Of a DNA stretch of 47,812 bases, positions 4,455 to 5,920 are shown piece by piece. The stretch's first letter is position 1, and each line of letters begins with the position of its first letter. The position numbers and the translations under genes were made by a program. The stretch is taken from positions 1-47,812 of IMG/VR virus record IMGVR_UViG_649989947_000010; one strand, given 5' to 3'. The DNA comes from a virus (taxonomy: Duplodnaviria; Heunggongvirae; Uroviricota; Caudoviricetes). The notes under the pieces were generated by a model. That model saw only the letters and a program-made list of their open reading frames with translations. It did no database searches and had not been told where the DNA came from.

Positions 4455-4745
4455 AATACCACTGCTTGATGAGAACCGCGCAAATGTTGACTATGCGCGA
4501 AGGTTAATGTGAATAGTTGACTATGCGCGATGTGACTACAGTCAAAAGTTGACTGTAGTCGATTTAACTCCACCAAAGATCGACTATGTAAGATATTGTC
4601 GGGAGAAACGTTGACTATACGCGATGAAATGGCCCTAAAAGCCATCTCAATAGAGACTTGCAGAATATTGACGCCAGCAAAAATCCACCAGCGTCAACGA
4701 ATGTCGCCTATAGTCAACTTCTCGCTATCGCATATAGTCAATATT
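4455..4745. repeat. incA-like iteron cluster downstream of repA (about 8 copies, both orientations)
   Basis: Repeated GTTGACTATGCGCGA / TCGCGTATAGTCAAC-like 15-16-mers, e.g. 4486-4500, 4515-4530, 4549-4563, 4609-4624, 4702-4717. Confidence 0.75.
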
Positions 4746-5628
4746 ATGGATTGCGCTTATGGATCTGGAAGCCGATTTTCCTGCCGTTTTTTATCTCTGA
4801 AAATTTAAGATATTCAATAGCTTCCAAATCTTTCATGGCTTTTCTGATAACGCTATTTTGCACGCTAACGGATGATTTGAGATTAAGCCTCGCCCTAAGG
4901 CGCTCAATGCTGACAGGTGCCGGGTTGGCGGGTAGAGCCTCAAAGAATGTATACAGTACCTTGGCCGTCTCTTTGCGCCCTAGTTTATCCAGCATCTTCA
5001 GCTTCAGGATTCGCTTATAGTCAACATAGTAAAGTTCAGATAGCTGTTTCTGCGGCTGGATCTCGATAACATCAAGCTCGGTATTCAGGCTGCTATATGC
5101 CAACAAGTTGACGTTAATGTTATTGAGATGACCTTTTGCCGCCGGGAAGCGGAATTTGACAACTGTCTGCTGAATGCGTGTCAGAGAGTCATCAATACTT
5201 TTACGGAACGCCTTTGAAAGGCGCTTACGTGGATAGCCGCATCGATCGGCAAACTCGGAGAATGGCAGGGTGATTATACCGTCATCATCAGGTGCATAGT
5301 CAAACAACGCGGAGGTTATGCCCACCCACACCTTAAAATCAGTATCCATATCCAGGCGTGGACCATGAATTTCAATTCCCTCATAGCCTTCCTGCTCAAC
5401 AATTTTGAGGCTTGATAGTTCTTCAGTTGCGTTCGTTGTGTTTGTTGTAACTGACGATCCGCGACGTAGCGCCACATTGGTAGATTTTAAGGTTGGCACA
5501 AACACACCTAAACGCAACAAAGCGATGGGTTGTATAGTGCTGTTGTTATTGGGCTTCAGGCTGTGGATTTCTCCTGTATTTCCTGCAACTTCTTCAACGC
5601 TAAGGAAGCCTTTACTTTCTTCCGGCAT
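4744..5628 (-). CDS. repA: Iteron-binding replication initiator RepA
   Basis: 294 aa flanked on both sides by iterons; conserved HGPRLDMDTDFK segment typical of RepA-type initiators. Confidence 0.8.
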   Translation of the reverse strand: MPEESKGFLSVEEVAGNTGEIHSLKPNNNSTIQPIALLRLGVFVPTLKSTNVALRRGSSVTTNTTNATEELSSLKIVEQEGYEGIEIHGPRLDMDTDFKVWVGITSALFDYAPDDDGIITLPFSEFADRCGYPRKRLSKAFRKSIDDSLTRIQQTVVKFRFPAAKGHLNNINVNLLAYSSLNTELDVIEIQPQKQLSELYYVDYKRILKLKMLDKLGRKETAKVLYTFFEALPANPAPVSIERLRARLNLKSSVSVQNSVIRKAMKDLEAIEYLKFSEIKNGRKIGFQIHKRNP

Positions 5629-5705
5629 CGTGGTTTCTCCATGTGTGGCGCGGCCTGGCGTTAATTTAGATGACTGTTATCAACAGCTGTGAATATTCAG
5701 GCTCT

Positions 5706-5810
5706 AAAATCGCGTACAGTCAACGTTTCTGTCGCGTATAGTCAACAATAAATCGCGTGCAGTCAACATAAAATCGCACACAGTCAACATAAAATCGCGT
5801 ATAGTCAATG
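5706..5810. repeat. Origin iterons (incC-like): five direct repeats at ~21-22 bp period
   Basis: AAATCGCGTACAGTCAAC, GTCGCGTATAGTCAAC, AATCGCGTGCAGTCAAC, AATCGCACACAGTCAAC, AATCGCGTATAGTCAAT. Confidence 0.8.
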
Positions 5811-5849
5811 TTGATCCCGTTTCAGGCCATGAACGGCGCGGCTTACAGC

Positions 5850-5920
5850 GATCCGGGATCTTCTTTGGATCTTCCTAGGTTCTCTTTGGGATCTGTTTAT
5901 TGGATCTATGCTGTGGATAA
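5850..5920. promoter_or_regulatory. oriR: Origin core: five GATC (Dam) sites in 57 bp plus DnaA box TGTGGATAA
   Basis: GATC at 5850, 5857, 5868, 5890, 5903; DnaA box 5912-5920; order DnaA box - GATC - iterons - repA. Confidence 0.75.

Follow-up and report, generated by a model that had tools for sequence, protein, structure and literature searches.

Two replicon types, IncY and p0111, are distinguished among P1-like phage-plasmids, and this dichotomy has been published (PMC9603915, PMC11165635, PMC10879196, PMC5241659). One survey counted 31/55 IncY and 24/55 p0111 elements and showed that in JL22 repA (p0111) and gp57 replace repA (IncY) (PMC9603915); a second counted 132 p0111 and 94 IncY elements, inferred 17 switches on the tree, described the repeated switching between the two types, and named AP010962.1 as the p0111 reference (PMC11165635). 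Moreover, p0111 was typed in 63/119 phage-plasmids (PMC10879196), and the RepA of SJ46 was reported to be 42% identical to that of P1 (PMC5241659). P1-like phage-plasmids are already known to have two replicon cassettes that can replace one another.

The architecture of the P1/P7 (IncY) replicon is the model with which the present locus is compared. In P1, copies 10–14 of the iteron form incC, namely five origin iterons spaced by 22/21/21/21 bp, and the repA promoter region of P1/P7 lies within the iterons; downstream of repA, copies 1–6 of incA are inverted relative to the origin and spaced by 30–31 bp, and copies 7–9 have the direct orientation. In addition, the origin has DnaA boxes at its flanks and a set of heptamer-like repeats with five Dam sites. 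The gene order and each of these arrangements recur in the window (the whole stretch of 47,812 nucleotides analysed here), where the distal iterons correspond to incA copies 1–6, the proximal direct iterons to copies 7–9, and the repA promoter is likewise predicted within the iterons. The first-pass annotation had proposed a P1-like layout made up of a DnaA box, clustered GATC sites, five direct origin iterons, repA and incA iterons, and every one of these elements is present where it was placed (as shown in Table 1).

The locus is the plasmid replication module of a P1-like phage-plasmid in which the initiator gene, the binding repeats and the origin of P1 have been swapped for a related, distinct set. 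Very probably, this module is the known p0111-type low-copy replicon, that is, a homologue of P1 oriR-repA-incA with the same architecture and a different initiator/iteron specificity. The repA gene has 98.2% nucleotide identity over 885/885 nt with that of pO111_2 (AP010962, the type reference, compared through its RefSeq record NC_013370), by which the module types as p0111 and not as IncY; by default, PlasmidFinder asks for 95% or more nucleotide identity along most of the length of the reference rep gene. As in other p0111 elements, the module is inserted into a P1-like backbone between P1 parA and upfA, and synteny with P1, RCS47 and SJ46 extends over the full window, from gene 23 to pacB. 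The window covers 47.8 kb of an element of about 95 kb. The p0111 variant is already catalogued and occurs in about half of P1-like elements, so that the module is real but ordinary.

Table 1. Coordinates of the replication module and the adjoining partition module in the window.
Feature	Position	Strand	Details
P1 partition module	1171–3575	-	adjoins the swap, not part of the cassette; parS ~1171–1253, parB 1259–2260, parA 2277–3473, par promoter/operator region
Swapped-in cassette relative to reference P1	~3576–5926		replaces NC_005856 ~61316–62920 (incA, repA, oriR)
Extra gene of the cassette, between incA and parA	3642–4451	-	PHROG 2876
incA-like array, distal, inverted relative to origin	4486–4624	+	4486–4500, 4516–4530, 4548–4562, 4579–4593, 4610–4624
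incA-like array, proximal, origin orientation	4684–4742	-	4684–4698 (degenerate), 4704–4718, 4728–4742
repA, p0111-type iteron-binding replication initiator	4744–5628	-	294 aa
Intragenic iteron-like site in repA	5011–5025	-	one mismatch from core, origin orientation
DnaA-box-like 9-mer	5677–5685	+	TTATCAACA, one mismatch; between iterons and repA start
Five direct origin iterons (incC equivalent)	5710–5809	-	starts 5710, 5732, 5753, 5774, 5795
Five GATC (Dam) sites in six heptamer-like repeats	5850–5906		5850, 5857, 5868, 5890, 5903
Perfect DnaA box	5912–5920	-	TTATCCACA

The iterons share the arrangement of P1 but not its sequence. The origin core (TCGCGTATAGTCAAC) is present in five copies with 0–3 mismatches and the same 22/21/21/21-bp spacing as in P1, and TTGACT, which agrees with the sigma-70 −35 hexamer at 5/6 positions, occurs in every copy. 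The window consensus AATGTTGACTATACGCGATTT differs from the 19-bp P1 iteron GATGTGTGCTGGAGGGAAA, and even in the best register (AATGTTGACTATACGCGAT) only about 10/19 positions are shared, which bears out the earlier suspicion that the iterons are not those of P1; the consensus matches neither P1 nor P7. In the incA-like array (4486–4742), six clear and two degenerate iterons in both orientations were found, as against nine copies in P1, and the earlier count of about eight therefore stands. The distal copies are spaced by 30/32/31/31 bp, the one at 4579–4593 being degenerate (9/15), and the proximal copies end 2 bp from the repA stop codon. With up to three mismatches allowed, the 15-mer occurs 15 times in the window, 12/15 of them within 4486–5809; in shuffled sequences 0.87 ± 0.87 occurrences were expected, and 0/100 shuffles reached 15.

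The five GATC sites lie within 57 bp, with one more at 5813, while the window average is one per 267 bp; this cluster is presumably where the strands of the origin are opened and methylation is sensed. When the heptamer repeats are aligned to the annotated Dam sites of P1, repeat 4 is without GATC in the window and repeat 5 in P1. At the distal side the window has one strong DnaA box, unlike the two tandem boxes of P1. At the position equivalent to the DnaA-box-like 9-mer between the iterons and repA, the D6-like relative discussed below carries a perfect TGTGGATAA. The locus has the helically phased direct repeats beside the rep gene, the DnaA box(es) and the A+T-rich region that are expected at the origins of Rep_3-type replicons. 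The window further differs from P1 in the iteron inside repA and in the extra gene between incA and parA.

The limits of the exchange can be placed by comparison with reference P1 (NC_005856). By blastn, the left flank (window 1–3575) is 97.3% and the right flank (5835 onward) 97.7% identical to P1, and between them (3576–5834) the only nucleotide match to P1 was 59 bp long, with 76% identity. On the left, the transition is abrupt, at about 3573–3580. On the right, blastn extension alone would put the junction at 5835. This position was rejected, since segment 5835–5920 is 91.9% identical to the D6-like relative as against 77.9% to P1, which assigns the GATC/DnaA segment to the incoming module and moves the junction to about 5921–5926. 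The exchange thus took in the whole oriR and not repA alone: a single cassette, which holds the complete basic replicon (DnaA box through incA) and in addition the GIY-YIG-like gene, has taken the place of the P1 module. The replicon swap postulated earlier is confirmed, RepA and iterons being foreign to P1/P7 within flanks that are 97–98% P1, although as an instance of the p0111 type the swap is not new.

The partition module next to the cassette was not exchanged. ParB is identical to that of reference P1 in 333/333 residues and ParA in 397/398, the box A and box B motifs of parS are identical, and the DNA of the module is 99.0% identical to both K02380 and NC_005856, whereas ParA is only 58% identical to that of P7. 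Judged by sequence, parS, ParA and ParB are authentic P1, and the module belongs to the P1 partition/incB group; this retention disagrees with what is stated in PMC5241659. Record OP279344.1, labelled "P1", was dropped as a comparator, as it carries P7-type par with a ParA 100% identical to that of P7. Against this record the par genes of the window looked diverged (58%), and NC_005856 was used as the annotated reference instead.

P1 parS, ParA and ParB constitute the incB determinant, the basis of partition interference, and the consequences of the swap for incompatibility are therefore probably partial, the replication determinants being changed and the incB determinant of P1 being kept. Since the iterons differ from those of P1 at about half of the positions, P1/P7 RepA should not recognise them, and replication-based incompatibility (incA/incC) with IncY P1 and P7 should be lost; since P1 parS-ParAB is kept unchanged, partition-based (incB) interference with P1 should persist. 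It has been suggested that replicon exchange lets elements escape incompatibility (PMC10879196), and the difference in RepA/iteron specificity agrees with the idea that the element is fully compatible with P1/P7, both coexisting in one cell. We consider this outcome rather doubtful, as incB-type interference is expected from the P1-type parS, ParA and ParB, and the co-residence data point the same way. Among complete E. coli genomes, the union of two replicon-specific queries gave 777 records in 774 genomes, and the IncY query alone 362 records in 361 genomes. From these record and genome totals it follows, as an upper bound, that at most three genomes have two matching records, one of them with IncY + IncY, where about 27 would be expected if the types were independent; the count covers separate records, leaving out any record with both replicons, and the strains are not independent samples. 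Strains that carry IncY and p0111 on two separate plasmids are thus close to absent from the complete E. coli genomes, a depletion that phage immunity or superinfection exclusion could produce as well. A tentative reading is that the swap would not free the elements from P1: with P1 par retained, IncY and p0111 would still exclude each other.

The initiator itself was compared with the known families. The repA gene is preceded by the ribosome-binding site GGAGAA, 6 nt upstream of ATG, and its product has 42% amino acid identity with the RepA proteins of P1 and P7 (E = 9e-71). By alignment, it is homologous to P1 RepA yet clearly divergent. The longest stretch common with P1 is GPRLDMDTDFK, the H just before it being T in P1; further blocks are conserved as well. 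Initiators of the iteron-regulated Rep_3 type are winged-helix proteins with a WH1 and a WH2 domain. RepA matches Pfam Rep3_C with 27.3 bits (cut-off 21.1), and Rep3_N with 22.0 bits falls just under the cut-off of 22.4; it belongs to PHROG 775 (E = 2.6e-134). No NCBIfam model matched it, and a search of PDB sequences returned nothing below E = 0.39, that is, no relative of solved structure detectable by sequence. The protein is identical to that of RCS47 and to WP_001113742.1, and 2/294 residues differ from pO111_2. A scan of genome contigs with RepA found one identical locus and no distant relatives.

The closest relatives are the p0111 replicons of pO111_2 (AP010962/NC_013370) and of phages RCS47, SJ46, JL22 and phi456, which have essentially the same sequence as the window. 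Segment 3576–5834 (2.26 kb) is 98.0–98.9% identical to pO111_2, RCS47 and pM121-2, and identity to RCS47, SJ46, JL22 and phi456 is 97–99%; the differences are confined to single positions. In PLSDB, 374 plasmids match over the full length, and at least 413/5,426 complete E. coli genomes carry the p0111 cassette; most plasmids with the module are P1-like, non-mobilizable and about 90–100 kb. A more distant variant is found in D6-like phage-plasmids (NZ_CP085065.1 and two IMG/VR loci, L046 and L047), with a RepA 85% and DNA about 77% identical to the window. It has the same iteron family, five origin copies at 21–22-bp spacing, incA iterons in both orientations, an identical intragenic iteron and a DnaA/GATC segment 92% identical to the window. 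Its flanks are unrelated, consisting of D6-like transglycosylase and tail genes in place of P1 par and upfA, and Pfam found nothing on the ORFs flanking the locus. The same iterons and origin layout in a D6-like backbone indicate that the module moves as a unit.

The database labels "RepFIB replication protein A" and "IncHI1B" (MOB-suite) would favour a different origin, namely an IncFIB/RepFIB (or IncHI1B) replicon captured from a conjugative plasmid, and RepA and the initiators of the IncFIB replicons (F-family and Klebsiella plasmids) are indeed members of one broad family. This origin is highly unlikely, however. The 45–48% amino acid identity to the IncFIB type is about as low as that to P1; the RepFIB/IncFIB iterons, though they also flank the rep gene, are different (TGTCTACTGTATGCT in IncFIB(K), ACTGACTACAGCTTA in RepFIB), and their context is not that of P1. 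In addition, the tblastn matches listed include no plasmid homologue between about 85% and about 54% identity, and the only close variant found is that of the D6-like phage-plasmids. Given the low IncFIB identity, the different iterons and the D6-like variant, such labels describe a family and not an incompatibility group; "RepFIB", "IncHI1B" and "replication helicase" are misleading for this element.

The extra gene of the cassette is labelled as GIY-YIG nuclease family in RefSeq and as T5orf172 domain-containing in the phage record ON470615.2. Here it is interrupted by an amber stop at codon 68 (TGG → TAG), and neither fragment has a match in Pfam; it is intact in RCS47 and pM121-2. The premature stop in this companion gene, and the fact that only half of the element lies within the window, might be taken to mean that the module is a decaying remnant and that replication proceeds from another replicon outside the window. 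This too is highly unlikely: repA is undamaged and encodes the same protein as in RCS47, conservation extends to all iterons, the GATC sites and the DnaA box, and the module is carried mostly by the large non-mobilizable P1-like plasmids mentioned above; moreover, the GIY-YIG-like gene is split in pO111_2 too, which suggests that it is dispensable. The weakest alternative, an ordinary P1/P7 (IncY) replicon whose iteron sequence the earlier reader had misremembered, fits the P1-like layout, iteron spacing and flanks but has a negligible chance, having been refuted by the alignments, with the low RepA identity to P1/P7, no significant nucleotide match across repA and an iteron consensus unlike that of P1.

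By analogy with P1, the p0111-type replicon would work as follows. RepA monomers would bind the five helically phased origin iterons, host DnaA would bind the flanking boxes, and together they would open the adjacent A+T-rich segment. The GATC heptamers would have to be fully methylated by Dam, and the hemimethylated origin would be sequestered after initiation. RepA bound to the iterons, each with its −35-like TTGACT, would repress repA, whose promoter would by the same analogy lie within the iterons; a sigma-70 scan of the repA strand in this region found no consensus promoter. The incA-like array downstream would titrate RepA and handcuff the origin, and would so hold the plasmid at about one copy. 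Everything said here on incompatibility and on RepA binding, autorepression, handcuffing and the dependence on Dam is transferred from the P1 paradigm and is to be read as prediction.

The iteron inside repA is an addition to this scheme. The identical 16-mer stands at the same codons in the D6-like relatives with 85% RepA identity, and the gene of a Providencia relative (53.5% identity) contains a copy of that relative's iteron, which differs in sequence and lies elsewhere in the gene; no intragenic iteron was found in P1, IncFIB(K) or RepFIB. The site may be a functional extra control site, either as a roadblock to repA transcription or as an additional handcuffing partner. This stretch reads GTTGACTATAAGCGA, of which a synonymous version would be, for example, GTGGATTACAAACGT. 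Taken jointly, the two related readings, namely that the intragenic iteron is functional and that the swap does not free the elements from P1, are offered only tentatively.

P1-like phage-plasmids act as vehicles for the spread of ESBL, mcr and virulence genes, and the replicon type serves their surveillance. The correct typing of this element as a p0111-type, not an IncY-type, P1-like phage-plasmid is therefore of practical value for annotation. In the open-access literature, no description of the p0111 iterons and no incompatibility test was found; what is added here is a map at base level that covers the origin and iterons of the p0111 type and the junctions of the cassette. The classification remains unchanged, but the retained P1 par and the depletion of co-residence temper the common assumption that IncY and p0111 elements are compatible.

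A complete plasmid replicon of the iteron type lies on the minus strand between positions 4455 and 5920. The P1-like layout described for it in the first-pass annotation proved accurate, since repA, the iterons, the GATC cluster, the DnaA box and the second array could all be located (see the table below). When up to three mismatches are allowed, the iteron 15-mer occurs 15 times in the window, with 12 of the 15 copies in the 1.3-kb replicon stretch and 0.87 expected from shuffles.

Features of the p0111-type replicon cassette, in window positions
Feature	Position	Strand	Remarks
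Extra cassette gene, annotated GIY-YIG nuclease family	3642-4451	minus	amber stop at codon 68 (TGG to TAG)
Second array, inverted copies	4486, 4516, 4548, 4579, 4610		downstream of repA; four clear, one degenerate
Second array, origin-orientation copies	4684, 4704, 4728		downstream of repA; two clear, one degenerate
repA	4744-5628	minus	294 aa; GGAGAA ribosome-binding site
DnaA box with one mismatch	5677-5685		
Five direct origin iterons	starts 5710, 5732, 5753, 5774, 5795		15-nt cores TCGCGTATAGTCAAC (plus-strand form); upstream of repA (higher coordinates)
GATC cluster	5850-5906		five sites in 57 bp, beyond the origin iterons
Perfect DnaA box	5912-5920		TTATCCACA

The design is common to this replicon and that of reference P1 (NC_005856). 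The five iterons of P1 incC, the origin set, start at intervals of 22, 21, 21 and 21 bp, exactly the spacing found in the window, and the P1 origin likewise includes five Dam sites together with a flanking DnaA site; P1 incA, the control array downstream of repA, consists of nine iterons about 31 bp apart, six distal copies being inverted and three proximal copies having the origin orientation. In contrast, the sequences of the components have diverged. As had been suspected, the iterons are not those of P1: the window consensus AATGTTGACTATACGCGATTT and the P1 consensus GATGTGTGCTGGAGGGAAA, aligned in their best register, share about 10 of 19 positions, a level no more than suggestive of common descent. 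RepA, also expected to be divergent, is 42% identical to the RepA of P1 and P7 (115/272 residues, E = 9e-71), and GPRLDMDTDFK is the longest run in common with P1. The specificity determinants of the replicon (RepA and iterons) differ from those of P1.

The proposed replicon swap is supported by the flanking DNA, in which blastn against reference P1 gave 97.3% identity for window 1-3575 (P1 57742-61315) and 97.7% for window 5835-10146, with no meaningful similarity between 3575 and 5835. The left junction is sharp and falls at about 3573-3580, immediately upstream of the par promoter. At the other end, identity of the GATC/DnaA segment (5835-5920) is only 77.9% to P1 versus 91.9% to its counterpart in a related replicon from a different backbone, so the whole origin was brought in by the cassette, and this places the right junction at about 5921-5926. 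The swapped-in cassette thus spans about 3576-5926; RCS47 and pM121-2 have an intact version of its GIY-YIG-like gene, and pO111_2 a split one.

The partition system has not been swapped, the P1 type being kept beside the exchanged oriR: ParB (333/333 residues) and ParA (397/398) match reference P1, the box A and box B motifs of P1 parS are present, and the par-region DNA shares 99.0% identity with K02380 and NC_005856. The ParA of P7 is only 58% identical to that of the window. OP279344.1, a record labelled 'P1', was dropped as the P1 comparator for par, since its own par region is P7-type and produced a misleading figure of 58%. It has been reported that ParA/ParB of RCS47 are P7-like, a statement attributed to Billard-Pomares (PMC5241659); the par DNA of RCS47 shows 99.1% identity to the window, which makes it P1-type, and the claim is not supported by this comparison. 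Three combinations were observed, namely p0111 rep with P1 par (the window), IncY rep with P1 par (reference P1) and IncY rep with P7 par (OP279344.1, whose ParA is 100% identical to that of P7), and replication and partition modules assort independently across P1-like elements.

Phages RCS47, SJ46, JL22, phi456 and others carry the cassette region at 97-99% identity, and 374 PLSDB plasmids, mostly non-mobilizable, of about 90-100 kb and from Escherichia and Salmonella, match it at full length. The RepA protein is identical to that of RCS47, and along its full length repA shares 98.2% identity with pO111_2 (NC_013370 = AP010962), the p0111 typing reference (PMC11165635). In JL22, repA (IncY) has given way to repA (p0111) together with gp57, an unknown gene, and 31 of 55 elements were IncY and 24 p0111 (PMC9603915). 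Another survey typed 63 of 119 phage-plasmids as p0111 and 52 as IncY (PMC10879196), while in Salmonella 132 p0111 and 94 IncY phage-plasmids were found, with 17 inferred replicon-type changes along the tree (PMC11165635); the RepA of SJ46 was given as 42% identical to P1 RepA (PMC5241659). From these descriptions, the swap is established knowledge. No description of p0111-type iterons and no experimental incompatibility test was found in the open-access literature, and what is new here is only mildly so: the base-level map, the exchange of the whole oriR with P1 par kept, and a conserved intragenic iteron. p0111-type RepA proteins are labelled 'replication helicase' (RefSeq phage records, PHROG 775), 'RepFIB replication protein A' or 'RepB family', and one p0111-type plasmid is typed IncHI1B by MOB-suite; in no case does the label correspond to the actual replicon type.

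The intragenic iteron lies inside repA at 5011-5025, in origin orientation and with one mismatch. Its 16-mer is identical, and in the same codons, in two IMG/VR loci (L046/L047; 3604-3618) whose RepA is 85% identical. A Providencia relative likewise carries a copy of its own iteron within the gene (L053; 1904-1918), at another position and inverted; no such iteron is present in repA of P1, IncFIB(K) or RepFIB, the three compared.

The working of the replicon can be proposed from established knowledge of the P1 system (oriR, RepA, incA/incC, Dam/SeqA and chaperone activation). RepA monomers would occupy the five phased iterons and DnaA the flanking boxes, and the A+T-rich GATC segment would open when fully methylated and be sequestered when hemimethylated. 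Iteron-bound RepA would repress repA, and the incA-like array would titrate RepA and handcuff the origin. The sequence TTGACT, matching the -35 hexamer at 5/6 positions, is present in all the iterons; no full consensus promoter was found, however, in a simple promoter scan.

Given the changed RepA/iteron pair, the incA/incC determinants are predicted not to cross-react with those of IncY P1 or P7, and the two types have been termed 'theoretically' compatible (PMC11165635). Since P1 par is retained, partition interference of the incB type is predicted to continue, so by analogy with P1 the altered incompatibility that had been suggested would probably be only partial. Replicon-specific queries of 5,426 complete E. 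coli genomes found the p0111 type in at least 413 and the IncY type in 361, roughly 7% each. The IncY query alone gave 362 records in 361 genomes and both queries pooled gave 777 records in 774, which leaves at most three of 774 genomes with two matching records, one of these being IncY with IncY. If the types were independent, about 27 genomes would be expected to hold both, versus at most three observed (as separate records of one genome). This rarity fits continued mutual exclusion and is suggestive only, being confounded by strain relatedness and phage immunity.

Elsewhere in the window, an insertion sequence (about 22918-25396), whose terminal sequence CTGATGAATCCCCTAATGATTTTGGTAAAAATCATTAAG looks IS10-like, contains a 1,150-bp tandem duplication (23097-24246 versus 24247-25396, 99.65% match) that gives two overlapping DDE transposase ORFs (23025-24233 and 24208-25383). 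This stretch is not covered by any P1-like phage record among the matches listed, and the duplication could be real or an assembly artefact. Two tight clusters of four GATC sites each (43743-43780 and 43873-43927) lie in a region annotated pacA in matching records, probably the Dam-regulated packaging site, comparable to the P1 pac site.

With tblastn against plasmids, 392 records had RepA identity of at least 99%, and six further records, outside the matches listed, fell at 80-99%. Below the near-identical group, the matches listed are IncFIB-type initiators (45-48%) and one plasmid from Providencia (53.5%); iterons were compared in three of the diverged relatives and differ from those of the window in all three. 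In L046/L047 the iteron family, the five origin copies and the DnaA/GATC layout are all as in the window, the incA array has iterons in both orientations, and the flanks are unrelated to P1. These loci match plasmids of about 90-94 kb from E. coli and E. marmotae (including NZ_CP085065.1); the neighbouring gene encodes a tail transglycosylase and the region resembles phage D6, whose own match is limited to the transglycosylase flank. The presence of related replicons in P1-like and D6-like backbones indicates that the basic replicon circulates as a module among phage-plasmids of the P1/D6 group.
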